The notes under the pieces: generated by a model
Database searches by the model: none
The model's input: only the letters and a program-made list of their open reading frames with translations
What the model was told of the DNA's origin: nothing
Shown here: in pieces, positions 5,045 to 29,514 of the stretch
How positions within the stretch are numbered: position 1 is the first letter of the stretch
Layout: each line of letters starts with the position of its first letter
Source: Candidatus Electrothrix yaqonensis
GTDB lineage: Bacteria; Desulfobacterota; Desulfobulbia; Desulfobulbales; Desulfobulbaceae
Reading direction: 5' to 3'
Length of the DNA stretch: 32,000 nt
Assembly: GCA_047651235.1 (NCBI GenBank)
Contig: CP178758.1
Location: forward strand, 3,330,001 to 3,362,000
Made by a program: the position numbers and the translations under genes

Positions 5045-6196
5045 ATGGATCTCCTCGCTGCTCTGTCCGACATATTCATCCTCTGGTTCGACACCTTTGT
5101 GCGTGAACTCGGACAATATCATTTCGGTGACCGTTTTACGATTATCTGTATTTATATTGTTCTGAGCAAAGGAGCAGATATTTTTATCAGCAGAGTGCTG
5201 CTCAGAATAGCCATCCGCACTGTTTTTGATGTGGATGAATATATTGTCCGGTTTATCCATCGACCGGTCTGCGTGTCTGTTTTTCTGCTCGGCCTGCTGC
5301 ATGCTGTGCTGCTGGACCCGGCCTTTCCCGCTCCCTGGGCTGTTGTTCTGCCCAATAGTATAAAAACCCTGATGCTTATTGTCTGGTGGTTTGCCCTGAT
5401 CCGGCAGATCACTATTATGAACGAAAGCAATACGGCCTGGGCGCTGAAGGCTTTTGATAAAACAGCATTTTATATGCTGAAGAATGTCTCCAGGATTCTT
5501 CTTCTGTTTATCGGCATCCTCTGGGTGCTGATTATTTGGGAGGTGAACCTGACCCCGCTCTTTGCTTCGGCCGGGATTGTCGGCATTGCCGTCGCTCTGA
5601 CGGCAAAAGATACGCTGGCGAATTTTTTCGGCGGTATTGCCCTGTTTATTGATGCAGCCTACAAGGTGGGTGATTACATTGTTCTGGAAACCGGGGAAAG
5701 GGGCGAGGTGGCGGAGGTCGGTATCCGGTCTACAAAAATAAAGACCAGAGATGACGTGCTGATTACTATTCCCAACTCGATTATGTCCATGACCAAGATC
5801 GTCAACCAGTCGGCTCCTATGGTCAGCTTCCGGATCCGCATTGATGTCAGTGTCAGCTACGGCAGTGATCTACGTGTGGTAGAAAAAGCATTACTTCGGA
5901 TAGCGAACCAAAATACAGCCTTGGAAGAAAAGCCGGAGCCGAGAGTCAGGGTGCGGAGTTTCGGCGATTCAGGTATTCTGCTGCAGCTGCTGGTCTGGAT
6001 TCAGGAACCGGCCCAGCGCGGGCTGCAGACCCATAATCTGATCAAGATGATTCACATCGCCTTCAAAGAACAGGGCATTGAAATTCCGTTTCCGCAGCGG
6101 GATGTAAATTTGGAGTGGCAGCACGGTGATGCGGAACATATCCTTCAACCGGAACAGGAGCAAGCGCATGAACACCAGCACCAGCATGACACCTGA
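5045..6196 (+). CDS. Mechanosensitive ion channel (MscS family)
   Basis: N-terminal TM helices are followed by LFASAGIVGIAVALTAKDTLANFFGGIALFIDAAYKVGDYIVLETGERGEVAEVGIRSTKIKTRDDVLITIPNS, the MscS pore helix plus beta-domain signature. Confidence 0.85.
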   Translation: MDLLAALSDIFILWFDTFVRELGQYHFGDRFTIICIYIVLSKGADIFISRVLLRIAIRTVFDVDEYIVRFIHRPVCVSVFLLGLLHAVLLDPAFPAPWAVVLPNSIKTLMLIVWWFALIRQITIMNESNTAWALKAFDKTAFYMLKNVSRILLLFIGILWVLIIWEVNLTPLFASAGIVGIAVALTAKDTLANFFGGIALFIDAAYKVGDYIVLETGERGEVAEVGIRSTKIKTRDDVLITIPNSIMSMTKIVNQSAPMVSFRIRIDVSVSYGSDLRVVEKALLRIANQNTALEEKPEPRVRVRSFGDSGILLQLLVWIQEPAQRGLQTHNLIKMIHIAFKEQGIEIPFPQRDVNLEWQHGDAEHILQPEQEQAHEHQHQHDT

Positions 6197-6464
6197 CAGC
6201 ACCACAGTTGTTTTCTATCATTCCAAGCTCTGACCGCGCTGCATATCGGTACGCCGTGAGCTGACCAGACTGGAGCAGGAATTTCCCGAACTGCGGATTG
6301 AAAAAGTGGACATCCTGGCCAGTCCGGGCAGGGCCCTGCAGCAGGGCATCATGATGATTCCGGCCTTGCAGGCCGGGGAGAAAAAATTGAGCGGGATTTT
6401 TCTCAGCGCAGCTAAGGTCAGACGGTTTGTGCAGGAAACTCTGACTGGCGAGGATGGAGGATGA
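6186..6464 (+). CDS. Thioredoxin/glutaredoxin-fold protein with in-frame UGA in the CxxC motif (selenoprotein candidate, U-P-R-C)
   Basis: Not in the ORF track. Reading from ATG 6186 gives MTPDSTTVVFYHSKL[TGA 6231-6233]PRCISVRRELTRLEQEFPELRIEKVDILASPGRALQQGIMMIPALQAGEKKLSGIFLSAAKVRRFVQETLTGEDGG, with stop at 6462-6464. The TGA sits where the first redox Cys follows beta-1. The cis-Pro motif (MIPAL) is present downstream, and there are no other stops in frame. Confidence 0.6.
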
Positions 6465-6505
6465 CACAAGCCTTCTGTCGGATCTGACAGACCCGGCGTG
6501 AAAGA

Positions 6506-9500
6506 TCATTTTTTTTCTATCTCCGCCAGCGTCTTTTCTGCTTCGGGAAGGTAGCGGCTGCCGGAGGTTCTGAAGATATCCACCGCCTCGCGGACGCATT
6601 GCAGGGCTTCATCGCGCTGGCCTTTTTTCAGGAGGATTTTGCTTAGAAGGTGCAGAGCGATACCTGTCTGGTTCCTTCCACCATATTTCTTACTGATGAA
6701 AATGCTCTCCTCACATTTTTCTTTTGCAATATCAATATCATTTTTATGATAGTAGGCTTCAGCAATGGCTGTTAATGGAATTGCCTTGGAATACATTAAT
6801 TCTCTTAACGCCAAGCTCTCCTCTAGCGCGGAAAGGGCTTTATCATACTCTCCAAGAGCTATATAAGCTTTACCGAGATAGGAAAGGCTAACAGACGCAC
6901 CTCCTATCCTTTTCCTTTCTCTGTACATCCTTAAGCTTTCTTCAAAGAAAGACAGGCCCTTCCGGGCATTGCCCTTGAGCAAATAAATATCTCCAATATG
7001 GTTAAGAACCAAGGGGACACCGTAACCGTTTTTTCGTTTTTTTCTCCTTCTGAGTAAATCCTCAAAGAGTTTTAAAGACTCATCCAGTTTTCCTAACTTC
7101 TTATAAACAGCTGCTATGTCGTTTTGCCCAGTTTCAACCTTTAATGCTATCCCCAGTTGTTTCGCTATCTCGAAGGCATCATTATAATATTGCAAGGCAG
7201 TTTTTAATTCTGAACATTTGGTGGAATAAAAAAAGCCTAATTGCCCCAATGATGCCCTTGTTCCTAATATATCTCCATTTCTTTTCCTTAACCGTAATGC
7301 CTCCTGAAACTGCTCTAAAGTTTTTTCCAGTTCACCTGCCCGCTGAAAGGACAGTCCAATATCAGAGAGCATATCAGAGCGTCCAGAAAGATCGTCTGAT
7401 TGTTTAGTTGCTTCTATACTTTTCTCATAGAATTGAAGAGCATTGTTCACATCACCTGCATCTCTGTAGGTATCGCCGATATCCTGTAAGGCTCTGGCCT
7501 GTGCTAAAATATCTCCGAATTTCTTAGCCAACGCCAAACTCTCCATGCCTTTCTCAAGAGCAACAGCAAACTGTTTTTGCTGGCGAAGAACCTGCCCCAT
7601 CATACGTAATGACAGAGATTGACCAAGAAAATCATCTCCTTTCCTTGACTTCAGACTTTCCTCGTATACAGTCAAGGCTTCCTCCCATCTGCGTTGTACC
7701 TGAAAAGTCTTGCCCAATACCTTGATCAGTATCCGGCATTTGCTGGCCGTATCGCCCTCCTGCTCACAGATCGTAATGCCGTCCCTGCTGACAGCCTCTA
7801 TCTTTTCCAGTTCTCCGACGTTCCAATACAGCAGATACAGATCATACAGCACCTTGGCAAGTTCTCCGGTGTTCCGCTGAGATTTCTGCAAGGCAACAGC
7901 TCGTTCAAAATACTTTTCCGACTCACCCCACTCAGCTTCCTCATAGAGAAATTTCCCCAATGCATGACAAACCTTGCCTTCCCGTCCCTCATCCGGCACT
8001 ATCTGTAGAATTTCTTCTGCCTGTCTGCACCGCTCTACGGCCTTGTCCAGCCCTTCGCATGACCGCTCCAGCCAGCCCATCTCAACCAGCAGGTCAACCC
8101 GCAGCAGCAGGTGCTCTTCGGTCGGCTCCAGTTGTTCCAATGCGGTAAGGCCGTCTTCCAGCAAGCTCCGGCATCGCTCCAGATAGCCCCATTTACGCAG
8201 ATATTCAGCTATCGGAGCAAGCAGGGCTGCGGCTGCGGCGATATCCCCGGCCCGGAAGGTATGATAATGGGCCTCAAGCCGTTGCTGCACCTGTCCAAAA
8301 GTCGGCTTTTCCGGATTGAATTCCAGCTGCTCATAATACGCCGCCATTCGGACATGGCAGTCCCTGCGTTCATCAGCTGATATCCCGGCCCGGCTGAATT
8401 CCCGCACCAGGTCGTGCTGCCGGTACAGCTTTGTCTTCCGGTCAAAAATCACCAGAGCCTTCCTGGTCAGGGATTTCAGCAGTCCGGGAGCCTGCCTGTT
8501 TCCGACGAGATAAGAGATAACCTGCCGGTACATCGGTCGGGGCAGGACGGAAAGTTTGGTGAGCAGATCCCGCTCTTCCGTAGTCAGAGTGCTGCTCAGA
8601 TGGCGCAGGAGATGTTCAACCACATCCGTATCGTGGAAGAACAGAGTCCGGTCTTCAAGGATGTCTTCCAACGGCATGACCTCGGCCAGACTTGCCAGCA
8701 GCTCCATTGCCAGAGGGTGTCCGGCTGTGAGCCGACGGGCCTGTTCAAGAAGTTCCTGATCTTCCTCCACACCGAGGATCTGCAGCAGCTCCAGACTGCT
8801 CTTCGGATCAATATCCTCCAGGGTGTTTTTTGACTGGCAGGAAAAACAGCGGCAGAAAAGAGGCGTAACCCGGCTGACCAGCAAGGCTTTTGATCGATGG
8901 GTCTGGTCCAGCAGGCTACTGAACAGACAGCGTAATCCTTCATTGGCAATTTGACACTGCTCATCCAGGAGTTCGTGAAGATCGTCAAAGACCAGAAGGT
9001 ATTTCTGCTCCGCCAAGGCGGTAAGCAGGAAACTGATTTTGTTGGCAGCAGGGGCAGGATATTCTACCACCCCGCTTAGGGTTTGATCTCCCTGTTCCGA
9101 TAAAAAATAGGCCAGCTCTGCCAGCAACTGATCTAAGTCTGTTTCAGCGGAACATTTTGTCCAGTAAATTCCGGTAAAATCTGCCTCAACCTCCTCGGCA
9201 ATTTTGGCAGCTAAAGACGTCTTGCCGATCCCGGCCAGTCCGTCCACGACAATGATGACCTTTTGCTCATCCCGGAGATCGGCCCGCAACTGGGCCCGTA
9301 TTTCCCTGCGGTCAACAAAATGCCGTACCTGCGGACGCAGGCAGTAGGTCGTGGGGCGTTTACCGGGTGATGTCGGTTCAGTCGGAGACGATTCCGGCGC
9401 AAAAGCAGGATTCCTGGCAATAACCAGTTCCCCCTGTATAAACGACCATCTGCCCGGTGTCTGCTGCTTGTCGCTCTCCATCTGTATGATCTGATCATGC

Positions 9501-10153
9501 GCATATTTATACAGATCATCCGCAGTGATGTTGCCATCCTGCGAGAGATCGGCTTTCCCGGTGCGCAGCCCCTGCACCAGAAATCTTGTAAAAACAGAGC
9601 AGAAAGGCGAGCCTGCCACCTTATCTCCTTCATAGGCATACTGAACAGCATCGCTGGCGGTAAGCACAACTCGACCGTACCCCGTTCCTTTAAAGGCCGC
9701 TTCTATCCCCGCATCAGTTCCGACTGCACCTTTGAAACCGGAAGTAAAGGCCCCGCTGTGGCAGCAGTCCAGAATCAGGACAATGCGACGGGAAAGGCAT
9801 TCATCCATCAGATCGGAAATGTAACCGGCAGAAACAGCCGTTGCCCGCAGCCGGTTCTGTTTTGTATTGGGCATTGCCAGATAGAGCTTTCCCTTCAGAT
9901 CCTTGACACCGTGTCCGCTGAAATAGAGCAGAATGAGGTCATCCTTCTTTTTCTCAGCAAAAAGTTCCTCAACCGCCTCCCGCACCACATGCGACGGTTC
10001 GTTGATCACCGTTTCAACAGTAAAATTTCCGATCCTGGGATCACGCAGAACATCAGCAAGAGCCTGAACATCGTTCTGCGGTGTTTCCAGCCGGGAAAAA
10101 AAGGTATCCTGATATTCGCTGCTGCTGATCAGCAGTGCTGAACGGGTTCCCAT
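6506..10153 (-). CDS. Caspase-like peptidase (C14) fused to a STAND/NB-ARC-type P-loop NTPase and a long TPR array
   Basis: 1215 aa. Caspase dyad: His in LLYFSGHG, Cys in LILDCCHSG. Walker A: VVDGLAGIGKTSLAAKIA. Walker B: YLLVFDDLHEL. The C-terminal ~600 aa consist of repeated 40-aa TPR-like units (A...Y..A..I....GD..G.A..L..LG..Y). Confidence 0.9.
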   Translation of the reverse strand: MGTRSALLISSSEYQDTFFSRLETPQNDVQALADVLRDPRIGNFTVETVINEPSHVVREAVEELFAEKKKDDLILLYFSGHGVKDLKGKLYLAMPNTKQNRLRATAVSAGYISDLMDECLSRRIVLILDCCHSGAFTSGFKGAVGTDAGIEAAFKGTGYGRVVLTASDAVQYAYEGDKVAGSPFCSVFTRFLVQGLRTGKADLSQDGNITADDLYKYAHDQIIQMESDKQQTPGRWSFIQGELVIARNPAFAPESSPTEPTSPGKRPTTYCLRPQVRHFVDRREIRAQLRADLRDEQKVIIVVDGLAGIGKTSLAAKIAEEVEADFTGIYWTKCSAETDLDQLLAELAYFLSEQGDQTLSGVVEYPAPAANKISFLLTALAEQKYLLVFDDLHELLDEQCQIANEGLRCLFSSLLDQTHRSKALLVSRVTPLFCRCFSCQSKNTLEDIDPKSSLELLQILGVEEDQELLEQARRLTAGHPLAMELLASLAEVMPLEDILEDRTLFFHDTDVVEHLLRHLSSTLTTEERDLLTKLSVLPRPMYRQVISYLVGNRQAPGLLKSLTRKALVIFDRKTKLYRQHDLVREFSRAGISADERRDCHVRMAAYYEQLEFNPEKPTFGQVQQRLEAHYHTFRAGDIAAAAALLAPIAEYLRKWGYLERCRSLLEDGLTALEQLEPTEEHLLLRVDLLVEMGWLERSCEGLDKAVERCRQAEEILQIVPDEGREGKVCHALGKFLYEEAEWGESEKYFERAVALQKSQRNTGELAKVLYDLYLLYWNVGELEKIEAVSRDGITICEQEGDTASKCRILIKVLGKTFQVQRRWEEALTVYEESLKSRKGDDFLGQSLSLRMMGQVLRQQKQFAVALEKGMESLALAKKFGDILAQARALQDIGDTYRDAGDVNNALQFYEKSIEATKQSDDLSGRSDMLSDIGLSFQRAGELEKTLEQFQEALRLRKRNGDILGTRASLGQLGFFYSTKCSELKTALQYYNDAFEIAKQLGIALKVETGQNDIAAVYKKLGKLDESLKLFEDLLRRRKKRKNGYGVPLVLNHIGDIYLLKGNARKGLSFFEESLRMYRERKRIGGASVSLSYLGKAYIALGEYDKALSALEESLALRELMYSKAIPLTAIAEAYYHKNDIDIAKEKCEESIFISKKYGGRNQTGIALHLLSKILLKKGQRDEALQCVREAVDIFRTSGSRYLPEAEKTLAEIEKK

Positions 10154-10566
10154 CAGCTTTCTTCCTGTGCCGTTGATGTGTTCTCTGCAGGCAGCTGATT
10201 GAGCCGTTCAATCAGCGTTGTAATTTCGTCTTCGGTATACCGCTTTTTGGGCGTGAACTCGGCCTTGGCTCCATTCGGGGCTTCCACTGATACCTTGCGG
10301 GTGCCACCGACCCACTGCTGCAGCAGACTGATAAGGCCGGGAATCGCTGCCACTCCAATTGCCAGTACAACAGCTCCGGTTGTGAGTGGTTCACCCTTGG
10401 CTCCCTGAGCGCTCTTTTCCTTCTTCACTTTTGCCCGGTTAACGGATTCGATATCGAACCCTCTGAGCTGTCCGATCAGAGTCAGGGTCAGCTGTTCTAT
10501 CTCTATCTCGTCCGCATCGTCTTTATCCACCAGTATCCGCAGCTCCACAATACCACTGTCCGCCAT
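10153..10566 (-). CDS. Small membrane protein resembling effector-associated constant component EACC1
   Basis: 137 aa. Acidic N-terminal strand region (VELRILVDKDDADEIEIEQLTLTLIGQLRG), then one hydrophobic helix (TTGAVVLAIGVAAIPGLISLLQQWV), then a short beta-rich tail (RKVSVEAPNGAKAEFTPKK...LIERL). Its TGA overlaps the caspase gene ATG by 1 nt (TGATG at 10155-10151). The family name is from recollection of the EACC1 layout and was not searched. Confidence 0.55.
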   Translation of the reverse strand: MADSGIVELRILVDKDDADEIEIEQLTLTLIGQLRGFDIESVNRAKVKKEKSAQGAKGEPLTTGAVVLAIGVAAIPGLISLLQQWVGGTRKVSVEAPNGAKAEFTPKKRYTEDEITTLIERLNQLPAENTSTAQEES

Positions 10567-11149
10567 CTCCGCCTCCTGCGTAAGTCTTCATTTTTTAAAG
10601 TAAGGATTCAATTTTACGAAGGTATTGCAGGGATGTCAAGGAAATCGAATTGATACGGCACAGACGGGCAATCTATGAGAAATCTTGTCGTTGTCTGTCA
10701 AACACTGTATCGTTTGACGATTCCTCCTGCGGGATGCAATCCCGGACAGCAAGTCTCCGGATATATTCCCGTCAGGGCAGTTCTGACCACCTCTGTTTTG
10801 CTTTTCGTCTTGGTTTCGCTCAATATAGCGATTCGGAGAAAATCGGCATTCGCCGCATCGGCTACTGGTTTTCGGGAAAGATAATATTTTTTCCGGCAGA
10901 ATATTGACACAGAAAAGAAGTGAACTTATCTTTTCAGTCAAGAGAGAGGAGGGGATAGAATAAATTTACACAGCTCTTTCAGAGGAAAAAGAAAGCAGGA
11001 TATAACGAATAAACTTTCACGCAGAACAGACATGGAGATACGTGAGGTTTGAAATTATTACTGCATATTTACTGCTGATATTTTATCAGATTTTGACTGT
11101 TGTTACAACTATCATCAAATCCGACAAAAATCTGTAAAGGAGGAACGCT

Positions 11150-11581
11150 ATGAGTATTTCAGTATGGGATCCCTTTCGGGAAATGGAAGCATTGCTGGAT
11201 CGCTACAGCAATGCACGAAAAAGTGCGGCAGGTGACAACAGGCAGATAGAAGCCGGAGACTGGATGCCTGTGGTTGATATCGCAGAAACAGACAATGATT
11301 TTATCGTCAGGACTGAGCTGCCCGGTGTTGACAAGGATCATGTGCATGTCAACATCAACAACGGCGTACTGACCATCAAAGGTGAGAAGAAAACCGAAGC
11401 CAAGGATGCAAAACGGCACCGGGTCGAATGCGCCTACGGTTCCTTTGTCCGCAGTTTCACCCTGCCGCAGGATGTGGATGTGGAGAAAGTGGAAGCCGGA
11501 TATAAACACGGTATCCTCAACCTGACCATTCCCAAGCAGGAAAAGGCAAAACCGAAACAGATTGAGGTAAAAGTCAATTGA
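11150..11581 (+). CDS. Small heat-shock protein (Hsp20/alpha-crystallin family)
   Basis: 143 aa with AGGAGG RBS. WDPFREMEALLDRY...WMPVVDIAETDNDFIVRTELPGVDKDHVHVNINNGVLTIKGEKK...ECAYGSFVRSFTLP...GILNLTIPK is a canonical ACD. Confidence 0.9.
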   Translation: MSISVWDPFREMEALLDRYSNARKSAAGDNRQIEAGDWMPVVDIAETDNDFIVRTELPGVDKDHVHVNINNGVLTIKGEKKTEAKDAKRHRVECAYGSFVRSFTLPQDVDVEKVEAGYKHGILNLTIPKQEKAKPKQIEVKVN

Positions 11582-11600
11582 TGTCAATTGATCCGCAACA

Positions 11601-11634
11601 ACCTGAACAGAACCTGAACAGAATCCTGTTCAGG
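11601..11634 (+). other. Inter-cistronic hairpin with duplicated 5' arm between the two Hsp20 genes
   Basis: ACCTGAACAG ACCTGAACAG AATC CTGTTCAGG. The 9-bp stem CCTGAACAG (11613-11621) / CTGTTCAGG (11626-11634) has a 4-nt loop. A second copy of the 5' arm at 11602-11610 could pair alternatively. No U-tract follows. Confidence 0.4.
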
Positions 11635-11700
11635 CTGACTGAAACGGTTCATTGTCCAACTGATATGATCTGTATAACGAAAGATAAAAGGAGGGGAATT

Positions 11701-12141
11701 ATGAACCTGAGTGTTTGGAATCCGTTCCAGGATATGGAGGCATTGTTGGATAGATACGGCAAATCGGATAGGCAAACTACGGCTGCCGGAGAGAGGAACA
11801 AAGCCCTTGAAGTCGGCGACTGGATGCCGGTGGTGGATATCGATGAAACCGACAACGAGTTCATCGTCAGAGCTGAGCTGCCCGGCGTGGACAAAGAGAA
11901 TGTTCAGGTCGCGGTTGACAATGGCATCCTGACCATCAGGGGGGAGAAGAAAAGCGAGTTCAAGGATGAAAAGCGGCATCGGGTTGAATGCGCCTATGGC
12001 TCCTTTGTCCGCAGCTTCACCATGCCCCGGTATGTGGATGTGGAAAAAGTGGAAGCAGCCTATAAGGAAGGTATCCTGAGGCTGACTATCCCGAAGGAGG
12101 AAAAGGCCAAACCGAAACAGATCACGGTGAACGTGCAGTAA
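11701..12141 (+). CDS. Small heat-shock protein (Hsp20 family), paralogue of 11150..11581
   Basis: ORF 11578..12141. Start at ATG 11701 (MNLSVWNPFQDMEALLDRY...) with AAAGGAGGGG RBS. Same ACD layout as the upstream gene. Confidence 0.9.
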   Translation: MNLSVWNPFQDMEALLDRYGKSDRQTTAAGERNKALEVGDWMPVVDIDETDNEFIVRAELPGVDKENVQVAVDNGILTIRGEKKSEFKDEKRHRVECAYGSFVRSFTMPRYVDVEKVEAAYKEGILRLTIPKEEKAKPKQITVNVQ

Positions 12142-15417: not shown

Positions 15418-15569
15418 GCCCGGCGATAAATCGCCGGGCTATTATCGAATGTCCCTGACGGGACAGGAGCAGCGTCCCGGAGGGACCGCACGAACATAGC
15501 CCACCGTTTTAACGGTGGGCGGCCTGTGTATACCCGGCATTATTCATGGGCAGGCACGGGGACCTGCCC
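15418..15569. repeat. Cluster of five short GC-rich perfect hairpins (REP-like)
   Basis: GCCCGGCGA-TAAA-TCGCCGGGC (15418-15439); GTCCC-TGAC-GGGAC (15451-15464); GTCCC-GGA-GGGAC (15474-15486); GCCCACCGTT-TT-AACGGTGGGC (15499-15520); GGGCAGG-CACGGGGA-CCTGCCC (15548-15569). They lie between the ygiQ start and the IS end. Confidence 0.5.
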
Positions 15570-15757
15570 CTACGCCCCCTGCCGCTTTGCCCGCACCCGT
15601 GCCAAATCCTTATAGCATCATCTTAGATAATTCTACTTTGGCACTCACAAAGGCTGTGGTAATAATTTGCAATTCGGTTGTTTCTCATATGCGAAATCAA
15701 TCGAAGCTTGCCTCTTTTCATGCCGTTGACGAAGCTGTCTTATAACTTCATCTTCGT

Positions 15758-16632
15758 TTACATCTCGACGTGGAAAATTGACTTGAGTAATGTTGTTATA
15801 TCAGCGCAACTCAATAACGGGACACCGACTTGATGGTATAATCGTTGCTCGACCATAAACAACATGGCCATCATGACCATAGTCATATGATGATGCCAAG
15901 CCAGCCATCCCCGAGCCTGATAATCACCCATTCCACATTCATTTTTTGCATCCTGAAATGGCCGTTCAACCCAATATCGTTGAGCTTGCATATATGCAAG
16001 TCGTCTTGTTGACGTGTTACTTTCCGCATTACTTAGGCTATATTTAATTTTTTTCGGGGACTTAACCTCACGTCTGACAACTAATTCTACTTTGGTGACC
16101 ATACCATTAACTATTTAATAATATTAATAATACTAAAAACAGGGGTTTTTAAATACTTAATAAAAATAAGCTAGTTATGTTTATGATCGCCAAAGTAGAA
16201 CTACTTGACAGTTGTCGGTTTTACCAAGCTGCCCGCACCATTGACGAGAAACCCCAACAGACATTTTACCCTTTTTGGGTATCCCGGATTCATCAATAAA
16301 AAGAGCGCTATCTTCCTTTCCTCCAAAAATGTTATCCGCATCTTTAGCTACTTGGTTGTTTACAGGACGCCAATCCCAGTTCGAGTCGGAAAGAAAATAC
16401 TGGAGGGGCTCATATTTAACGCCCGGAACCTTTTCCTCCATACGTTCCATGTTTTTTTGTCAGCCTGGAATAAACCTTTCAAGTATTGGAATGCTTTATC
16501 TGACAAACTTACCGTATGTCTCTTAAAAAAATGATGATATCTTTCGTGAAAAGACGTAAGTTGCCGGGCGATGCCGGTCAACTCAAAGAATTTGTCATGG
16601 GGACTTCTTTTTTCGGGGCTGGGAGCGTTCAT
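15758..16632 (-). pseudogene. IS701-like DDE transposase, disrupted
   Basis: There are three fragments. The first two are ORF 16360..16632 (...YHHFFKRHTVSLSDKAFQYLKGLFQADKK) and ORF 16181..16450 (MERMEEKVPGVKYEPLQYFLSDSNWDW...ALFIDESGIPKKGK...GKTDNCQV). They are out of frame at a run of 7 A (complement of 16452-16458), where 8 would restore ...ADKKNMERMEE. The third is ORF 15758..16102 (...YSLSNAE...RYWVERPFQDAKNECGMGDYQARGWLAWHHHMTMVMMA). The segment that should carry the second catalytic Asp is missing. Confidence 0.7.
16084..16201 (+). mobile_element. 118-bp MITE (copy 1) sharing the IS701-like terminal repeats
   Basis: Ends are ATTCTACTTTGGTGACCAT... and ...ATGATCGCCAAAGTAGAAC, with an AT-rich core. 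It is flanked by TA/CTA on both sides (16081-16083 and 16201-16203), consistent with a target duplication. It lies inside the transposase pseudogene. Confidence 0.7.
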
Positions 16633-16840
16633 AAAAAGAATAAAGTTATAATCAGGGCGATTGACGGGTATTTTTTTGATAGCTGTTATCAGGTGCTAGC
16701 TTGATCAAAAAGCGATAAAATTTTCCTAATGAAAGATACAACTTTATCCGGATACTGCAAGAAGTTTTTACAAATAGATCAAAAGGTTATGGTTGCCAAA
16801 GTAGAATCAATCAGACCGTAATAACGGCAATGCGTTGCTT

Positions 16841-16878
16841 AGCCCTGAGTCCTCCCCGGATTCAGGGCTTTTCTTTTT
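16841..16878 (+). terminator. Intrinsic terminator-like hairpin
   Basis: AGCCCTGA (16841-16848) pairs with TCAGGGCT (16862-16869), followed by TTTCTTTTT. No intact plus-strand gene lies upstream, so it is probably a relic of the pre-IS context. Confidence 0.45.
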
Positions 16879-16918
16879 GTCCCGCCGCCTTCAATGCCCT
16901 GTTTTTCCTTCGTCGCTG

Positions 16919-16947
16919 TTGACACATATACTTTGGAGCTTTATCAT
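16919..16947 (+). promoter_or_regulatory. Sigma-70-like promoter facing the AAA+ ATPase gene
   Basis: TTGACA (16919-16924), a 17-nt spacer, then TATCAT (16942-16947). It is 88 nt upstream of ATG 17035 and lies outside the left inverted repeat. Confidence 0.45.
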
Positions 16948-16977
16948 GCAAAATACACTGAACATTATCTTGTTTTT

Positions 16978-17069
16978 TGCAGGGCCTCTACAACGGATAC
17001 AACATAATATCTTTCAGCAAGGACGGAATAATCAATGGACTCTGACAGCGGCGGCTTTCTGCCGATCAA
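16978..17069. repeat. Left copy of the 92-bp inverted repeat (junction of 381-aa-like gene end and AAA gene start)
   Basis: Reverse complement of 28318-28409 with 87/92 identity by hand alignment. The perfect 51-bp core is 17004-17054. It encodes an orphan GLYNGYNIISFSKDGIINGL* (16983-17045) overlapping ATG 17035. Confidence 0.85.
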
Positions 17070-19002
17070 ACAGGCTGAACTGGAAGAACAGATCAAAAAG
17101 GCATCCGCCTTTCTCCGGCGGGCTTCCTGGCACCCCAGAGTAAAAAAGGAACGCCTCCGGGAATCAGCCAATGCCCATGAGATCATCAGGAGTATCACCA
17201 ATGCCTCGGCCCAGGAAACGTCCAGCATTGCGGACAAGGCGAAACAACTCAGTGATGACCCGCTGCTGATTTATCATCCGGATGTCGCTTTTTCTATGAA
17301 TGCGGTGCGCAAAGGGATCGCGCTGGGCATGCATACGGCCAACCTGTATTCCAAGGCCTCCAATTTTTATACCCTCAAGGCCCAGCAGGCTGACGGCGCC
17401 CTGAAAAATAATCCCGAAGCCCAGACCGAATTCCGACAGAAGAATATCACCACCTCGGCGGTGCTGCTCTTTGTCACGGCCAATTATATCGTCTCCGCTT
17501 TGAGTGACTACAAAAGCGAAGCTCTGGATTCGATACAGGTCAGTTTTCCCGGTCTGCCCGAAGAACTGCATCTGGCCAATTATATCCATGCCCTCAACTA
17601 TCTGCTGTACTATCACGGCTTTTTTCTCAATGCGGACAACATCCGGACCCCGCTGGATGTTGTCAAACTGACCCAGCTTTATTACCAGGAAGTGCTCAAT
17701 GAGATAGAGTTTATCCGGGATTCCCTCAAGTATACGGAACCCTTTGAGAGCAAGGGCTACAAGCTGGAAGGCGAGGACTTTGTCATTGAAGGATTCACCG
17801 CCCATACCGTGCAGGTGAGTGGCAGCGTGGATTTCAACCGCCTGGAATGGGGAGAGATTGTCGGTAATACCATGTACAAGCACAGCTCAAAACGGACCAT
17901 CCAGTTCCTGATGTGCTATGACGTGGAGCGGAAAAAGAATCCCATCAATGAGCTGGGCGGCTTCCCTGCTGTGACCATGGAGTACGGTCCTGCCGGAACC
18001 GGCAAAAGCATGGGCATCTCCGCGACCGCAACCGAACTTCACGACCGCTGTACGGATCTGGGCATCAAGTTTTTGTATCATCCCATCCCCCAATCGGTTG
18101 TCTCCACCTATCAGGGCGGCAGCAGCGAGAACATGGAAAAATGGTTCCGCTCCGCCACCTCACCGGACATGATTATTTATGCCCCCATTGATGACGGCGA
18201 CGGCAAACTCCGCGACCGGGGCGCACGGGGTACGTCCGCCGGGGTGATTGAGGTGGTGGAGAGCTTTCTGGTCAACACCGAGGGCGCTTCGGCAGCCAAG
18301 CAGGGCAACCGGCTGATCCAGATCTACACCAATCTGCCGGAAACTCTGGATAAAGCCGTGCTGTCCCGCGTGCAGAAACGCTCCCTGCTTGCCGGAGCCA
18401 CCACTGTCGAGGATTTTCTGGATCAGGATTATATCTGGTGGCAGACCTATGAGACTATGGTGCCCGGTTTTGTGGATATGCAGCATCCGGAAGAGTACGA
18501 GTTCATGTCCGCTCAGGAAATTGCCGACCGGATCAGCGAAAAATATGATGAACAGGGCGAAGCTCAGGTCTACAAAATCAAGACGATTATCGAAAAAACC
18601 ATGCAGGAGCACAGTATTGAAGAGCATCTGTTCTTTGCCCGGCTCTTTCATACTATCAAAGCCGAGTTTCCCGGCTTCACTTCACGGGATGTGCGGAACA
18701 TCCAGACTGCCGTCAATACTCGGCTGACGGATTTTGATTTTCCTGCTGAATGGATGAATGATCATGCCTGCTTTTTCGCCGGATCTTATGATGAAAAACT
18801 GAGCATGCTCAAGGAGCTGATGAAGGCGAATATGCAGGGCCTGTCGTTCGCCAGTATCCGCTTTCAGGAGGTGGTCCGGTATCTGGACAATATGGCCATG
18901 ATCGTGGACAAGGATTTTGAAAACAAGGTGGCCCAGCGTATGGAGGAATATCGGGTGGAACAGGAGGCCCGGCGGCGCCTAGCGGAAATAACAGCAGCCT
19001 GA
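17035..19002 (+). CDS. AAA+ ATPase (classical AAA, SpoVK/CbbX/EccA-like) with large helical N-domain and C-terminal extension
   Basis: 655 aa. Walker A: EYGPAGTGKSMG. Walker B region: MIIYAPIDDGDGKL (Asp-Asp instead of Asp-Glu). Sensor-1: IYTNLPETLD. LSRVQKR resembles the SRF-type arginine motif. About 310 aa of helical sequence precede the ATPase and about 200 aa follow it. Confidence 0.85.
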   Translation: MDSDSGGFLPIKQAELEEQIKKASAFLRRASWHPRVKKERLRESANAHEIIRSITNASAQETSSIADKAKQLSDDPLLIYHPDVAFSMNAVRKGIALGMHTANLYSKASNFYTLKAQQADGALKNNPEAQTEFRQKNITTSAVLLFVTANYIVSALSDYKSEALDSIQVSFPGLPEELHLANYIHALNYLLYYHGFFLNADNIRTPLDVVKLTQLYYQEVLNEIEFIRDSLKYTEPFESKGYKLEGEDFVIEGFTAHTVQVSGSVDFNRLEWGEIVGNTMYKHSSKRTIQFLMCYDVERKKNPINELGGFPAVTMEYGPAGTGKSMGISATATELHDRCTDLGIKFLYHPIPQSVVSTYQGGSSENMEKWFRSATSPDMIIYAPIDDGDGKLRDRGARGTSAGVIEVVESFLVNTEGASAAKQGNRLIQIYTNLPETLDKAVLSRVQKRSLLAGATTVEDFLDQDYIWWQTYETMVPGFVDMQHPEEYEFMSAQEIADRISEKYDEQGEAQVYKIKTIIEKTMQEHSIEEHLFFARLFHTIKAEFPGFTSRDVRNIQTAVNTRLTDFDFPAEWMNDHACFFAGSYDEKLSMLKELMKANMQGLSFASIRFQEVVRYLDNMAMIVDKDFENKVAQRMEEYRVEQEARRRLAEITAA

Positions 19003-19089: not shown

Positions 19090-20154
19090 ATGAAAAAAAA
19101 GAATAAGCACCTCTGTGACTATCTTTATACGGACACCAGAAAGATTCTCTCCGTGTACAGCCAGCTGACCGGGGCGGTTGTTGCCGCCGGAGAATCCGTG
19201 TATACGACGGCCAGTCAGGCGGAGAATAAAAAGAAATACGATTTCAAGATATTCAAGAACGTAAAGAACGATGCTGACGGCAGCACCCAGGATAAGCAGG
19301 GCCTGCAGGAGCAGGTCAGGTCGCACCATACCCTGTTCCGGGAGCTTGAAGAGGAACTGGTGCATCAGGGATATCTGCTCGATTTATCTGGTAAAGAAAT
19401 GGCCAAAAAGATTCAGGACAAGGAATTCAGAAAGACGTTAAAGGATACGTTCTGTGTCAGAGTGACAGGAAGATGCGTCATCGAGCATTACGAGAGGATG
19501 AAAAAAATCTCCGAGTCGTTTCCGAATATCGCCGCGCTCATTAACCAGAGCAATAAAGCAGCGGTGAAAAACACGGAAGCGTATAAAAAACTCGTCGAAC
19601 AAATTAAAACCAAAGAGGCTGAAGTCGCAAGAATCAAAGACAGAAATGCCAGAAATATACAGCAGGCTCCATTAAAAGAACAAAAAAAACGGCTGACAGC
19701 GCTGCTGGAAGAGCAGACCACGGCCGGCATGGTTGAGCAGTGGGTTCTTGACGGCCTGAAAACCTGGATCGATACCTTCATACCGGGAATCATTAATCTG
19801 CGGGTCTATCCGGCGCAGGAGCACATGGATGTACAGGTGTTCGGACATCTGAAGCAGGATAATTTCTTTGACATGGATATCAGCGGATTCCACTTTACCT
19901 ACGGCTCAATCCCGACCGAAGAGATGACGATGATCGGTATTGTTACTTCCGTACCCAACCCGGAGGATGCTGAGTTCAATCCCCATCAGGAATTCCAGGC
20001 CGGTGAGCTGTCGAGCAGGGAAGCTGTGGAGCGCGGCTTCCGTGGTGTCTTCCGGGGATTTGATACCTTTGAACAGATGGTACGCACCTGCAGATATCCG
20101 AGGGTGCTGGTGTATCCCCTGCTGGTGTACCGGCAGATGGGGGCGAAGAAATAA
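19090..20154 (+). CDS. Hypothetical 354-aa protein (no family recognised), downstream partner of the AAA+ ATPase
   Basis: Long ORF with uniform coding character. N-terminus: CDYLYTDTRKILSVYSQLTG. Central Lys/Glu-rich helical segment. C-terminus: ...CRYPRVLVYPLLVYRQMGAKK. A diverged copy of the C-terminus survives at 22353-22439. Confidence 0.7.
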   Translation: MKKKNKHLCDYLYTDTRKILSVYSQLTGAVVAAGESVYTTASQAENKKKYDFKIFKNVKNDADGSTQDKQGLQEQVRSHHTLFRELEEELVHQGYLLDLSGKEMAKKIQDKEFRKTLKDTFCVRVTGRCVIEHYERMKKISESFPNIAALINQSNKAAVKNTEAYKKLVEQIKTKEAEVARIKDRNARNIQQAPLKEQKKRLTALLEEQTTAGMVEQWVLDGLKTWIDTFIPGIINLRVYPAQEHMDVQVFGHLKQDNFFDMDISGFHFTYGSIPTEEMTMIGIVTSVPNPEDAEFNPHQEFQAGELSSREAVERGFRGVFRGFDTFEQMVRTCRYPRVLVYPLLVYRQMGAKK

Positions 20155-20223: not shown

Positions 20224-22167
20224 CTATCCTTCTGTCTTTACGCCCTCTACCTCTCCTACCTCCTCTTCCTGCACCAATCTGCCCTTACACGCCTCCAGAA
20301 TACTTGCCAGCATTTGACTGTAGGACATGTCCTGCAGCGCAGCCATCTTGGCCAGGTGGCCGTCCCAGCACCAGCCCGGATTGGGATTGACTTCCAGCAG
20401 TCGAGGCGTACCGTTGTCGTCCACGCGCCAATCAAAGCGGGCATAATCACGGCACTCCAGGCGTTCAAAGAGCTTGACGCAGCTTGCACCCAGGAAGCGC
20501 TCCACATCTTCGGACAATTCTGCCGGAATGGATGTGATTTTCCAGTACGGTGAATCCGGATTCCATTTGGCCTCGTAGCCGCAGATTCTGGGCAGGTCTT
20601 CAGGCAGGGCTGAATAGTCTTCCTCAATCACGGGCAGTATCATATATGAGCTGCCCGGATTACCGACAATCCCCACGCTGATATCCTTGCCGGTGAGGAA
20701 CTCTTCAACCAGGATGGGATTGTTATACCCGAATTTATCCCGGATCCCGGTCACGGCACTTTCCAGAGTTTCCAGATCATAGCAGACATTGCTCTGGGTA
20801 ATACCGAAGCTGGAGTCCCCGAAATTCGGCTTGACAATCACCGGAAAGGTGAGCGGAAATTCAACAAACTGGATATCCTCCGGTTTGATCATAAACGCAC
20901 CCGGAACCGGGATATCCATTTCCGTGGCAATCCCCCGGATCAGCGACTTGTCGTAGCAGTAGGCCAGGCATTGCGGAGTACCGCCGGAATAATGCATACC
21001 CAGCAGTTCCAGCAGAGCAGCCACATGCAGTTCCTTGGTCGCCTCATTCTGAAAGCCTTCATCACAGAGATTGAACACATAAGTGCATTTCCCCTGGAGC
21101 TTGATCAGATCCTGAAGCAGAGTATCGTGGTTGTACAGATAGGTGAAATTGCAGTTCGGGATCTCTGCCAGGGCCTTTTTCAGCTCATTGATGGTATGGA
21201 AATCGTCGTCATCAAAATTAGCTCCCGGCTTGACCACATCTGTTTTGCCTGGATCGCCCAGCAGAACAACGACTGAGTCGGCTACATCGGGACTTTCACG
21301 GACTGCGGACCATTCTTTGTGGGCTACCCCGGTTATTACCACCCGCCGGGCCATCATACCTAAGTCCTGGTTCCGTTTTGATTCTGCTGCAACCTCTGTG
21401 CAGCTCCGGCAATCCCTGAAACCTGCCTTGGACAGCAACGTGTCAAGCTCCTCTATAGAATAAAGGCGTTCTGCATAGAACTGATCCGCAATCACGCCTT
21501 TGGTCACATGGGTGATCACTTCTCTGGAAACCAGCCGTTCCCGATTTTCTGAGAGCGAACGCTCCCGGCAGACAAAATAATTCTTATCTATCCACTCCCA
21601 GCTGCGGGCATCAAAATGCTCGCGCATATATTCACCGTCCGTGATATCAATGAGCAGTCTGCCGTCGGGCCGCAGAATGCGCATAACCTCTTTCAGAATT
21701 CTGGCATCATCCTTACTGGAGTCAAAATAGCCGAAGCTGTTGCCTGCAATGATCACCGCATGGAATTCATCGGTTGGAAAAGGCAGTTTCCGGGCATCAC
21801 CTTCTTTAAAAAGGACATTCATCCCTTCAGTCCTGCTGACTTTTCTGGCCCGGTTGATCAGGTAATGGGAACGGTCCAGGCCGACAACATTGCTGTACCC
21901 CCTGCGGGCTATCTCCAGGGTATGCCGTCCCTGACCGCAGCAGAGATCCAGGATTTTACTCTCCTTGGGCAGATCAAGGGTATTGAGAAAAATATCCACC
22001 TCTTTTTTAGTGATTTCCTTATCTTCAACCACATCACCGTCGGTACGCAGATAATTGGCATTAAAGAGATGCCGCCACCAGTCAGCCTTGACGTAGCTTT
22101 CCAGGTTATCAACCGGCCCCAGCACCTCAACGATCTTTTTAGTTCTGCTTTTTTTCGGCTTTGCCAT
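20224..22167 (-). CDS. Fusion protein: class I SAM-dependent methyltransferase (N) + D-Ala-D-Ala-ligase-like ATP-grasp ligase (C)
   Basis: ORF 20224..22197. Start at ATG 22167 (MAKPKKSRTKK...) with GAGGGA RBS. MTase motif I: ILDLCCGQGRH. Post-I: VVGLD. ATP-grasp signatures: FPVIVKPNFGDSSFGI, ILVEEFLTGKDISVGIVG, ARFDWRVDDNGTPRLLEVNPNPG. Confidence 0.85.
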   Translation of the reverse strand: MAKPKKSRTKKIVEVLGPVDNLESYVKADWWRHLFNANYLRTDGDVVEDKEITKKEVDIFLNTLDLPKESKILDLCCGQGRHTLEIARRGYSNVVGLDRSHYLINRARKVSRTEGMNVLFKEGDARKLPFPTDEFHAVIIAGNSFGYFDSSKDDARILKEVMRILRPDGRLLIDITDGEYMREHFDARSWEWIDKNYFVCRERSLSENRERLVSREVITHVTKGVIADQFYAERLYSIEELDTLLSKAGFRDCRSCTEVAAESKRNQDLGMMARRVVITGVAHKEWSAVRESPDVADSVVVLLGDPGKTDVVKPGANFDDDDFHTINELKKALAEIPNCNFTYLYNHDTLLQDLIKLQGKCTYVFNLCDEGFQNEATKELHVAALLELLGMHYSGGTPQCLAYCYDKSLIRGIATEMDIPVPGAFMIKPEDIQFVEFPLTFPVIVKPNFGDSSFGITQSNVCYDLETLESAVTGIRDKFGYNNPILVEEFLTGKDISVGIVGNPGSSYMILPVIEEDYSALPEDLPRICGYEAKWNPDSPYWKITSIPAELSEDVERFLGASCVKLFERLECRDYARFDWRVDDNGTPRLLEVNPNPGWCWDGHLAKMAALQDMSYSQMLASILEACKGRLVQEEEVGEVEGVKTEG

Positions 22168-22201
22168 GTTTTTTGTCCCTCTGCGCCTGTTGCGCAAAAA
22201 A

Positions 22202-24310: not shown

Positions 24311-25405
24311 TGTGATAATATACCTGCGAGAAGTTGGCCCTTGTTTCTTGCCCGTGAACGTATAACCGTTCTTTTATCAGAACATAAACTGCCCGGTTTA
24401 TCATCATGAATATCGCACTGCACAAAAGAGCGCGTACAACCCCGGCTGTCCGCCGGGAAATTCAGCGCTCAGAACTTTCCGAACGTAAGTTGTCGGAAAA
24501 ATACGGCATCAGCAGAAGTACGGTCCGGAAATGGAAATACCGTGATACCGCCGACGATTTTTCGCACAGGCCGCATAATCTGCACGCGACGCTCACGGAT
24601 CCGGAAGAAGCCGTGGTTGTTGAGCTGCGCAGAACGCTCCTTCTTCCGATTGACGATCTCCTTGTTGTTGTGCGTGAATTCATCTGTCCGCATATGTCGC
24701 GCTCCGCCCTTGACCGCTGCCTGCGGCGGCACGGAGTCTCAAATCTGAAAGAGCTGATCCCGGCGGAGGAAAACGAAGAGAACCGTCCGAAAACATTTAA
24801 AGATTACGAACCTGGTTTTGTGCATGCCGATATAAAATATCTCCCGCGGATGCCGGACGAAACGGAGCGGAAATATCTTTTTGTCGGCATCGACAGGGCC
24901 ACCCGGTGGGTGTACATGGAGATCCGGGCTTCGAAAACTGCGGAATCCGCCCGCTCTTTTCTGAATAATCTCATTGGGAAGGCCCCGTTCATGATCTCAA
25001 AAATTCTCACCGACAACGGGAAGGAGTTCACCGACCGTTTCTGCCCGTCCGGAGAGCGTGAACCGACCGGAAATCACGTATTTGATCGGAAATGCGGGGA
25101 GAACGGCATTGAGCACCGTCTGATAAAACCGCGCAGACCGCAGACAAACGGCATGGTCGAGCGCTTCAACGGCAGAAGTAAAGAAGTTGTTCAGCAGACA
25201 AAGTTTGAATCGTCCCGTCAGCTTAAGGAAATACTGCTGCAGTATCTCCGTATTTACAATCACCATATTCCGCAGAAAAATCCCGGTCATATCACGCCGG
25301 TTGAGGCTCTGAAAAATTGGCGGAAAACGCATCCCGATTTATTTAAAAAACAGGTATACAATCAGTCGGGGCTTGACACGTATGTAGTAAAGTGACTTGT
25401 TCACA
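24311..25405 (+). mobile_element. IS481-family insertion sequence (apparently intact)
   Basis: Ends are TGTGA... (24311) and ...TCACA (25405), enclosing a complete transposase gene. The boundaries are approximate and I could not identify a target duplication. Confidence 0.7.
24406..25395 (+). CDS. IS481-family transposase (HTH + rve integrase core)
   Basis: 329 aa. N-terminal HTH: LSEKYGISRSTVRKWKYR. DDE core: FVHADIKYL...LFVGIDRATRW...ILTDNGKEF...RPQTNGMVERFN. Confidence 0.9.
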   Translation: MNIALHKRARTTPAVRREIQRSELSERKLSEKYGISRSTVRKWKYRDTADDFSHRPHNLHATLTDPEEAVVVELRRTLLLPIDDLLVVVREFICPHMSRSALDRCLRRHGVSNLKELIPAEENEENRPKTFKDYEPGFVHADIKYLPRMPDETERKYLFVGIDRATRWVYMEIRASKTAESARSFLNNLIGKAPFMISKILTDNGKEFTDRFCPSGEREPTGNHVFDRKCGENGIEHRLIKPRRPQTNGMVERFNGRSKEVVQQTKFESSRQLKEILLQYLRIYNHHIPQKNPGHITPVEALKNWRKTHPDLFKKQVYNQSGLDTYVVK

Positions 25406-26070: not shown

Positions 26071-26151
26071 CGTCGTTTTCTCTCTATTAGGGCAGCAAGA
26101 ATGCTTTGCTATTGACCAAAGCATTCCCATGGTACAGTCACTTTGACCAAA

Positions 26152-27153: not shown

Positions 27154-27181
27154 TGTTTTCTCCTTTCTGGATTTTTTTGGA

Positions 27182-27919: not shown

Positions 27920-27960
27920 AGTTTTCCCCTTCTATGAATAAATATTTGTATTTGATACTA

Positions 27961-28078
27961 TTTCTACTTTGGCGATCATAAACATAACTATCTTATTTTT
28001 ATTAAGTATTTAAAAACCCCTGTTTTTAGCATTATTAATATTATTAAATAGTTAATGGTATGGTCACCAAAGTAGAAC
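27961..28078 (-). mobile_element. 118-bp MITE (copy 2), inverted relative to copy 1
   Basis: Reverse complement of 16084-16201 with only a few mismatches (e.g. CTATCTT vs CTAGCTT, TAGCATT vs TAGTATT). It is flanked by TA/CTA (27958-27960 and 28078-28080) and sits 42 nt upstream of the 245-aa gene start. Confidence 0.7.
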
Positions 28079-29487: not shown

Positions 29488-29514
29488 GTCGGCAACAGCT
29501 TCTTAGATAAAAAA

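Follow-up and report, generated by a model that had tools for sequence, protein, structure and literature searches.

A candidate protease-gated suicide module of the EACC1/caspase-STAND type in a cable bacterium

What might two overlapping genes do in a cable bacterium when one encodes a small acidic protein and the other joins a caspase-like protease to a nucleotide-binding switch and a long array of repeats? The pair occupies positions 6506 to 10566 of the 32,000-nucleotide (nt) stretch analysed here (the window), from contig CP178758.1 of Candidatus Electrothrix yaqonensis, and GenBank holds the exact sequences of both proteins, as Candidatus Electrothrix sp. YB6. Our answer, for which we would put the probability at roughly 70% and which is drawn by analogy with characterized systems, is that they would make up a suicide module of the EACC1/caspase-STAND type, with two genes and a protease as its gate. 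As such, the locus is an intact but ordinary EACC1/caspase-STAND-TPR pair, of a type predicted in 2020 and with a homologous pair worked out in 2025. The genes and their expression signals are as follows.

6506..10153, minus strand: caspase-NB-ARC-TPR protein of 1215 amino acids (aa); open reading frame (ORF), GenBank XOF33416.1, named 'caspase, EACC1-associated type'
10153..10566, minus strand: EACC1-family small protein of 137 aa; ORF, GenBank XOF33417.1, named 'hypothetical protein'
10151..10155, minus strand: TGATG stop/start overlap of the two genes, read directly from the sequence
10572..10577, minus strand: Shine-Dalgarno sequence AGGAGG of the EACC1 gene, read directly, 5 nt ahead of the ATG at 10566
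10611..10639, minus strand: sigma-70-like promoter candidate TTGACA-17-TAAAAT for the two-gene operon, matching the consensus at 11 of 12 positions

An earlier note on this DNA had described two ORFs of 137 and 1215 aa that share one base in a TGATG, and this is what we find: at the junction (...GAAAGC TGATG GGA...) the TGA stop and the ATG start have base 10153 in common. Orthologous loci show spacers of 6-16 nt in place of the one-base overlap, which is peculiar to this genome; the conserved trait is tight same-strand operon linkage. The promoter candidate is the best sigma-70 consensus match within 6000-11200 and lies ca. 45 nt upstream of the EACC1 start, and it is a consensus match only. 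No further EACC1 or caspase copy occurs within the window.

Does the small protein belong to the EACC1 family? By itself, it scores 16.2 bits with the Pfam EACC1 profile (PF19953; E-value, E, 0.011; cutoff 23.6 bits), covering profile positions 25-106 of 107. Nine close homologues came from a word-indexed search, every one of them of cable-bacterial origin or from related metagenomes, and eight of these match PF19953, the best at E 2.4e-5. With a profile of the close homologues, searching 1.84 billion cluster representatives reached 649 proteins at E<=1e-3, 99 of them at E<=1e-10. PF19953 is matched at E<=1e-3 by 30 of the 105 wider relatives that were aligned (best 2.2e-10), several of which carry fusions to EAD7, EAD1 or CHAT, as described for EACC1. 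Likewise, the profile of this 105-sequence family aligns with the EACC1 protein of Ktedonobacter racemifer (KrEACC1; sequence from Table S1 of the preprint by Evans et al.), which passes the Pfam EACC1 cutoff at 28.2 bits; the hhalign E is 4.4e-4 over 71 columns, in register across the hydrophobic segment and the strand that follows it. The protein also has the architecture by which Kaur et al. define EACC1, with a short N-terminal alpha+beta part, a single conserved hydrophobic stretch that contains a cluster of small residues and a short C-terminal alpha+beta part. Because the intermediate sequences, the KrEACC1 profile match and the linkage to caspase genes detailed below all agree, we class the small protein with EACC1, as a divergent member, on these sequence comparisons, in keeping with the earlier suggestion that it was EACC1-like; the result that would have refuted that suggestion, a missing profile match together with missing linkage to caspase-STAND genes, did not turn up. 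This executioner gene is named 'hypothetical' because EACC1 proteins of the cable-bacterial clade score too low for the Pfam threshold.

The linkage to a caspase gene is conserved: EACC1 lies directly 5' of a same-strand caspase ORF, with a spacer of 6-16 nt or an overlap, in 9 of 11 distinct loci. The nine are from the window, Ca. Electronema aureum, Ca. Electronema nielsenii, Desulfobulbus sp. TB and five metagenomic lineages; the genome and metagenome contig scans used narrow peptide patterns and gave 2 and 3 loci, respectively, and the linkage count refers to the 11 distinct loci. Flanking genes are unlike in every orthologous locus. The two exceptions to the linkage are decayed copies, L013 and L004/L005.

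In L013 (5001-6935) EACC1 is intact, an inverted, 5'-truncated caspase fragment lies 0.6 kb downstream and a gene for an Mrr-like nuclease stands beside them. Copies L004 (6001-6336) and L005 (240-575) are C-terminally truncated orphan EACC1 genes near Uma2 or VapB genes.

Such decay elsewhere, with truncated orphan EACC1 genes and an inverted caspase fragment, would lend some colour to the idea that the present locus is an inactive evolutionary remnant as well. We find this barely credible, for here both ORFs are full-length, all catalytic and nucleotide-binding motifs are intact and predicted expression signals are present.

Which of the two proteins would do the killing? The protease had been cast as the effector and EACC1 as its 'constant' partner, in a combination thought never to have been dissected experimentally. 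Both views are overtaken by the work on Ktedonobacter racemifer of Evans et al. (bioRxiv 10.1101/2025.11.14.688446, November 2025), which reverses the roles, EACC1 being the pro-toxin and the protease the transducer. Co-expressed with a phage tail connector, the K. racemifer pair needs both EACC1 and the catalytic Cys152 of the protease protein (KrAvs12) for toxicity, and deletion of EACC1 removes toxicity. According to the same preprint, the purified protease splits EACC1 into two fragments, of which the C-terminal one alone is toxic; liposome leakage is caused by cleaved EACC1 only; and KrEACC1 is an autoinhibited monomer, with its N-terminal part in a sheet with two C-terminal strands. Because the cleaved C-fragment permeabilises membranes in those experiments, we treat EACC1 as the executioner and the protease as the transducer in the cable-bacterial pair too.

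The following parts can be told apart in the small protein, with secondary structure from an AlphaFold2 (AF2) model.

10432..10566, minus strand: EACC1 residues 1-45, acidic beta-alpha-beta unit, the predicted autoinhibitory N-fragment (AF2 strand 6-15, helix 20-35, strand 39-45)
10387..10404, minus strand: motif G55-A-K57-G-E59-P60, the predicted protease cleavage site (conservation and AF2 loop)
10309..10386, minus strand: EACC1 residues 61-86, conserved hydrophobic stretch with many small residues (T62, G64, P76, W85)
10198..10308, minus strand: EACC1 residues 87-123, beta-beta-alpha C-terminal unit with conserved R90, APNG 96-99 and E103-F104 (AF2 strands 90-95 and 101-105, helix 112-123)

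Modelled with the 105-sequence alignment, the 137-aa protein adopts a compact alpha+beta fold (predicted local distance difference test score, pLDDT, 83.4; predicted template-modelling score, pTM, 0.74), in which the N-terminal strands pack against the C-terminal strands. A fold search of the PDB with the model gave generic ferredoxin-like matches only (best E 5e-3; template-modelling score, TM, 0.4-0.55), with no PDB neighbour at E<=1e-3. The protein had been portrayed as having an acidic beta N-terminus and a single transmembrane helix. The first trait stands, with 11 D/E and an isoelectric point (pI) of 4.05 over residues 1-40; the second is in doubt for the uncleaved protein, as AF2 places the hydrophobic segment inside the monomer, as a strand (63-71) and a helix (72-85). 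This segment has a Kyte-Doolittle maximum of 2.36 over 19 residues, with G64 and W85 both conserved at 90% or more. Its predicted burial in a compact fold fits a soluble pro-toxin, and to judge from the model the description as a single-helix membrane protein probably holds for the activated state only. Being strongly conserved, rich in small residues and competent to span a membrane, the segment is equally what the model proposed family-wide by Kaur et al. (2020) builds on, in which EACC1 would be a constitutive single-pass membrane sensor that responds to perturbation of the membrane and activates the caspase, whose auto-processing would then free its C-terminal domains as effectors. For this locus we regard that model as very improbable: the AF2 prediction is a compact, soluble monomer instead of a membrane anchor, the C-terminal part of the large protein is a STAND NTPase with TPRs, which is a sensor and switch and not an effector, and in Ktedonobacter EACC1 is a substrate, its C-fragment alone is toxic and the trigger is a STAND-sensed phage protein.

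The large protein divides into four consecutive parts.

9413..10153, minus strand: EACC1-associated C14 protease domain, residues 1-247 (NF047832, Peptidase_C14, catalytic dyad, AF2 and Foldseek)
9338..9412, minus strand: Pro/Ser/Thr-rich linker, residues 248-272, the protease/sensor recombination junction (sequence NPAFAPESSPTEPTSPGKRP)
8345..9337, minus strand: STAND nucleotide-binding oligomerisation domain (NOD) of the NB-ARC type with a winged helix, residues 273-603 (NB-ARC/NACHT, 6mfv)
6509..8344, minus strand: TPR-like repeat sensor, residues 604-1215 (TPR_12 in eight stretches, 161.6 bits; TPR_MalT, 77 bits)

Pfam and motif analysis bear out the earlier account of this protein as an intact caspase His/Cys dyad followed by an NB-ARC domain and ca. 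600 aa of TPRs, and the profile searches that account had proposed, for Peptidase_C14 and for NB-ARC/NACHT, all match. At the N-terminus, the NCBIfam family 'caspase, EACC1-associated type' (NF047832) covers residues 5-222 with 167.3 bits against a cutoff of 140, and all five orthologous partners tested pass it as well, at 151-178 bits; Pfam Peptidase_C14 covers residues 4-207 with 55 bits (cutoff 21.4). The catalytic dyad is intact, with H81 in SGHG and C131 in LDCCHSG: both residues align with H415 and C464 of MALT1, and C131 also with the catalytic C152 of KrAvs12. H81, D129 and C131 are invariant across a 42-sequence alignment that covers both clades of EACC1-associated caspases. Modelled with AF2, residues 1-270 (pLDDT 80.3, pTM 0.82) show the caspase/hemoglobinase fold: among 192 Foldseek matches in the PDB at E<=1e-3, the top 29 are all MALT1 (E ca. 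1e-11, TM up to 0.73), and behind them come animal caspases, legumain and metacaspase-9. By sequence as well, the nearest solved relatives are MALT1 and the metacaspases, of clan CD, family C14 (E 6e-5, 18-22% identity).

Residues D28, D129 and E175 are candidates for the S1 pocket of the protease. D28 and D129 align with two acidic S1 residues of MALT1, which we take to be D365 and D462, and E175 may correspond to MALT1 E500, in a manual alignment only. In the cable-bacterial clade of these caspases, position 28 is Asp (codon at 10070-10072) and four extra residues, EGDK (E175-K178, codons at 9620-9631), are inserted; in the Ktedonobacter-type clade, position 28 is A/S and the insertion is missing. 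This comparison suggests that the two clades have different S1 pockets, and they may truly differ in specificity because the Ktedonobacter type is without D28 and E175 sits in a clade-specific insertion.

Where would such a protease cut EACC1? The stretch G55-A-K57-G-[D/E]59-P60 is the best conserved of the family, and it is contained in residues 46-62, the sole low-confidence loop of the EACC1 model (block pLDDT 57). Of the 105 sequences, 97 have K and 5 have R at position 57, 102 have G, S or A at position 58, 63 have D and 27 have E at position 59, and 48 have P, the commonest residue there, at position 60, which would be P1' of a cut at E59. MALT1 and metacaspases are specific for basic P1 residues, and Pro at P1' is unfavourable for caspase-family enzymes. 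We favour a cut between K57 and G58, with E59-P60 as the alternative, because MALT1 and the metacaspases are closest by sequence and fold, D28 and D129 match the acidic S1 residues of MALT1 and the P1' residue is small; a cut at E59 is less favoured because Pro would be P1' in about half of the family. In the hhalign register, K57 stands opposite Kr R42, E59 opposite Kr D44 and T62 opposite Kr D49. The cut at Asp49 given for KrEACC1 is derived from an AlphaFold3 model, is called 'putative' and was not mapped by Edman degradation or mass spectrometry (Evans et al., bioRxiv 10.1101/2025.11.14.688446), and the fragment masses quoted equal the theoretical ones for that cut. The K57-G58 bond is a testable prediction, unlike this sole published site assignment, itself putative.

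The resemblance of the protease to MALT1 and metacaspases, which have many substrates, could also be taken to mean that EACC1 is mainly a membrane adaptor or decoy and that the activated paracaspase-like domain kills by broad proteolysis of cellular proteins, as promiscuous prokaryotic caspases do; further caspase-like proteases in bacterial defence (PCaspase) have been characterised and are cited as a class apart. This seems to us quite improbable: in the Ktedonobacter system toxicity is lost without EACC1, and the strict gene pairing together with the family-wide loop motif points to one dedicated substrate.

What follows the protease reads as a switch and a sensor. Only the linker of ca. 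25 residues, rich in Pro, parts the protease from the NOD, and because of this there is no room for an adaptor domain; the extreme N-terminal protease without adaptor that had been remarked on as peculiar is correctly described here, and it is not unusual but the canonical form of these proteins (Kaur et al. 2020). Pfam NB-ARC covers residues 295-490 with 50.4 bits (cutoff 23.5) and NACHT gives 37 bits, and residues 273-603 align with PDB 6mfv, the crystallised archaeal STAND protein PH0952 with a TPR sensor, at E 2e-25. All NOD motifs are present: Walker A (GLAGIGKTS, 305-313), Walker B (LLVFDD, 386-391), sensor-1 R428 (in LVSR, 425-428), GxP (GHPLA, 478-482) and an MHD-like QHD (579-581). 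The C-terminal TPR part is the region that diverges most among orthologues, at 48-55% identity.

Comparisons among the loci indicate that the two halves of the system have moved separately. The closest EACC1-caspase module is that of Desulfobulbus sp. TB (L006), with 75% identity in EACC1 and 86% in the caspase domain, and its STAND C-terminus is unrelated, ca. 20% identical after the linker and with a weak NB-ARC match only. Conversely, the NOD-TPR part of the window protein is 57-70% identical to those of Electronema and of a metagenomic lineage, their caspases being only 58-60% identical. Three other lineages have a short caspase protein (ca. 410-650 aa) without a recognisable post-protease domain. 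The nearest homologues of the sensor region bear as N-terminal heads a caspase (60% identity), CHAT (67%), EAD8 (55%), none (45%) or TIR (28%), and a match to NF047832 is confined to those headed by a caspase. The EACC1-caspase module and the NOD-TPR sensor have thus been recombined independently, with the junction in the Pro-rich linker, shuffling of a kind already described for these systems (Kaur et al. 2020; Evans et al., bioRxiv 10.1101/2025.11.14.688446). The loci are a clean natural case of its running both ways, with EACC1-caspase on different sensors and NOD-TPR with caspase, CHAT or EAD8 heads, and because of this two-way exchange we read the TPR-NOD part as sensor and switch and EACC1-caspase as the effector cassette.

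A homology search with the KrAvs12 protease retrieved proteins (P0167-P0286) whose C-termini include WD40, Ser/Thr kinase, TPR, TIR, AAA+/Clp, FGE-sulfatase and helix-turn-helix domains. These Kr-type caspase fusions are a large-scale case of the rule 'constant module, variable partner'.

One block within the C-terminal TPRs differs in composition at third codon positions.

6854..7606, minus strand: block of low G+C at third codon positions (GC3), codons ca. 850-1100, GC3 0.32-0.41 vs 0.53-0.68 elsewhere in the gene

The same dip occurs in the orthologues L001 (6391-10047) and L007 (1518-5033), which are only ca. 50% identical there. A recent horizontal import of the block was rejected on this ground, and because such divergent orthologues have the dip too, the block appears to be maintained and not newly imported. 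A diversity-generating retroelement aimed at the TPRs was also considered and rejected, as neither a template/variable repeat pair nor a reverse transcriptase was found.

How, then, might the module work? We propose that the large protein rests as an autoinhibited STAND ATPase, similar to the NLR proteins, whose C-terminal TPR sensor would bind one particular protein, which analogy suggests is most likely to come from a phage. From what is known of STAND and Avs proteins, binding would license nucleotide-dependent oligomerisation through the NB-ARC domain, which would gather the N-terminal paracaspase-like domains and activate H81/C131 by proximity. The protease would next cut the co-expressed EACC1 pro-toxin in the exposed G-A-K57-G-E59-P loop; cleavage itself is established for the homologous pair, and the site is our prediction. 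The cut would release the acidic N-terminal beta-alpha-beta unit that masks the hydrophobic core, and the freed C-fragment (ca. 8.3 kDa) would oligomerise in the inner membrane, permeabilise it, kill the cell and abort the infection, as shown for KrEACC1.

Several observations weigh against this proposal. The small protein scores under the Pfam EACC1 gathering threshold, and the shallow profile of its nine close homologues gave no significant match to KrEACC1 (E 0.41). The KrAvs12 protease is only 24% identical to that of the window, and the predicted S1 pocket differs between them (D28 is replaced by A/S, and E175 lies in the clade-specific insertion), so details of the Ktedonobacter mechanism may not transfer. 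The Asp49 site of Evans et al. aligns with T62 and not with K57. Besides, the large protein matches no Avs or bNACHT model of PADLOC and no known defence genes flank the pair, so that an anti-phage role rests on analogy.

The neighbourhood gives no hint of a defence island, which we looked for and rejected: the neighbours encode TetR, beta-propeller, MoCF-biosynthesis, Trm112, MscS, two Hsp20, DctP and radical S-adenosylmethionine (SAM) proteins, of housekeeping type, and PADLOC found nothing among them beyond a generic methyltransferase match. The Hsp20 genes are a tandem duplication (11150-11581 and 11578-12141, both plus strand; 80% identical over 300 nt) that runs divergently to the EACC1 operon. 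A functional link between them and the operon was rejected, as the adjacency is kept in no orthologous locus and is treated as coincidence.

Could the same biochemistry answer an endogenous trigger instead, a stress or developmental cue that leads to programmed death of filament cells, and hence to ghost cells or controlled filament breakage? A study of cable bacteria describes unexplained, metabolically dead 'ghost cells', and its authors noted caspase-domain genes, which await functional study. Moreover, EACC1 systems show a strong statistical association with multicellularity, 650 of 671 organisms being multicellular prokaryotes, and are sporadic in proteobacteria (Kaur et al. 2020), fusions of EACC1-caspases to DnaK-like chaperones led Evans et al. 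(bioRxiv 10.1101/2025.11.14.688446) to suggest stress sensing, and no defence island can be recognised around the locus, which is divergent to a pair of hsp20 genes. These points have their counterweights, for the hsp20 adjacency is kept in no other locus, the tested STAND sensors of the TPR-like kind all respond to phage proteins, sensor and effector modules shuffle rapidly, as is typical of conflict systems, and ghost cells have other proposed causes (virus lysis, predation, mechanical damage). On balance, an endogenous trigger strikes us as unlikely, and a phage protein remains our preferred ligand for the suicide module.

We may nevertheless speculate that a caspase-gated pore is a plausible contributor to ghost cells. 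In its full form, which we hold to be unlikely, the module would be the ghost-cell executioner: a protease with Lys/Arg and not Asp specificity at P1 would cut EACC1 between K57 and G58 upon a phage or endogenous stress trigger, and the freed fragment would empty one cell of the filament with the shared conductive fibres of the periplasm still working. Were this true, the Asp49 cleavage rule from the Ktedonobacter model would lose its generality, and a caspase-gated pore would be among the physiological factors that determine how intact the filaments of a multicellular bacterium stay. In any case, the locus provides a concrete candidate for the caspase-linked cell death on which cable-bacteria researchers have speculated. 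For annotation, the large gene is already correctly named by the NCBI pipeline, the small executioner gene gains a re-annotation and the cable-bacterial EACC1 profiles recover ca. 650 cluster representatives.

Elsewhere in the window, two pairs of inverted repeats (16082-16203/27959-28080, 122 nt at 97% complementarity, and 16978-17069/28318-28409, 92 nt at 95% complementarity) flank a segment of ca. 11.8 kb that may be a mobile or invertible element. It contains an AAA ATPase, a DUF6414 protein, a methyltransferase fusion, an rve integrase and unannotated ORFs. The 655-aa AAA ATPase (17035-19002, plus strand) is followed by the DUF6414 (PF19952) protein (19090-20154, plus strand) in an apparent two-gene unit, neither member of which is matched by PADLOC. 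An unusual fusion (20224-22197, minus strand) joins a SAM-methyltransferase to a C-terminus resembling D-Ala-D-Ala ligase (ATP-grasp). The rve-family integrase/transposase (24406-25395, plus strand) adjoins a block of five ORFs (25645-30882, minus strand), one of which has a Pfam match (DUF6345). An ORF-poor stretch of ca. 1.5 kb lies at 15500-17035, with G+C down to 39% in 16001-17000 and short direct and inverted repeats at 16074-16211; Rfam and tRNA scans of the window, this stretch included, found nothing.

How does the pair compare with known systems? The layout of the large protein is that of Avs and bNACHT proteins, with an N-terminal effector, a central STAND NTPase and a C-terminal TPR-like sensor, and with an effector that can be swapped on a conserved sensor. 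Each TPR-like Avs sensor binds a single phage protein, after which it oligomerises; in the case of Avs12 the protein recognised is a portal adaptor (2026 preprint). However, no solved Avs structure is among the PDB sequence matches of the window protein, whose NOD is NB-ARC/MalT-like and closest to archaeal PH0952. The comparison with Avs and bNACHT that the earlier note had recommended did not place it in either group, since a PADLOC scan of the large protein returned generic 'caspase' and 'TPR' models only and no Avs (Avs1-5), bNACHT or NLR model at E<=1.

With those bacterial gasdermin systems whose caspase-like proteases are fused to NLR-like or repeat domains the pair would share a logic, in that a sensor-linked protease of the caspase family strips a neighbouring pore-former of its inhibitory segment, leading to permeabilisation and abortive infection, an analogy drawn by Evans et al. 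(bioRxiv 10.1101/2025.11.14.688446). The likeness is in logic only, as the Pfam scan gave no gasdermin family match to the EACC1 protein. In bacterial gasdermins the inhibitory piece is C-terminal. Unlike them, EACC1 is far smaller (137 aa), is modelled as a ferredoxin-like alpha+beta fold and would have its inhibitory piece at the N-terminus. MALT1, in turn, has its protease with death and Ig domains, in contrast to the STAND-TPR context seen here; the two proteases are 18-22% identical, and the basic P1 specificity of the window protease is a prediction.

Among EACC1 systems, the pair corresponds to 'System 4', as which Kaur et al. (2020) defined the EACC1-caspase combination, with up to 50 alternative C-terminal domains that include STAND NTPases and repeats. 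As in that system, EACC1 is 5', the caspase is 3' and at the extreme N-terminus of a protein with variable further domains, and the host is a multicellular bacterium. The mechanism proposed with it, in which EACC1 is the sensor and C-terminal effectors are released, has been superseded by experiments and fits a STAND-TPR protein poorly.

The KrEACC1/KrAvs12 pair is a close parallel, with some differences in detail. Avs12 senses a phage portal adaptor or tail connector, and over the first 399 aa of KrAvs12, the part compared, similarity to the window protein is limited to the caspase core. NF047832 gives 83 bits with KrAvs12, below the cutoff, vs 167 with the window protein, and for Pfam EACC1 the order is reversed (28.2 vs 16.2 bits); the two C-fragments differ in charge, with an acidic pI of 5.0 here vs a basic one of 9.5 in Ktedonobacter. 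Nonetheless, in both cases the EACC1 gene is 5' of the gene for a protein that combines an N-terminal caspase-like domain, a STAND NTPase and a helical-repeat sensor, NF047832 is the best NCBIfam match of both proteases, with the His/Cys dyad and the LDCC motif kept, and the two small proteins, which align in register over 71 columns, have a predicted autoinhibited-monomer topology in common.

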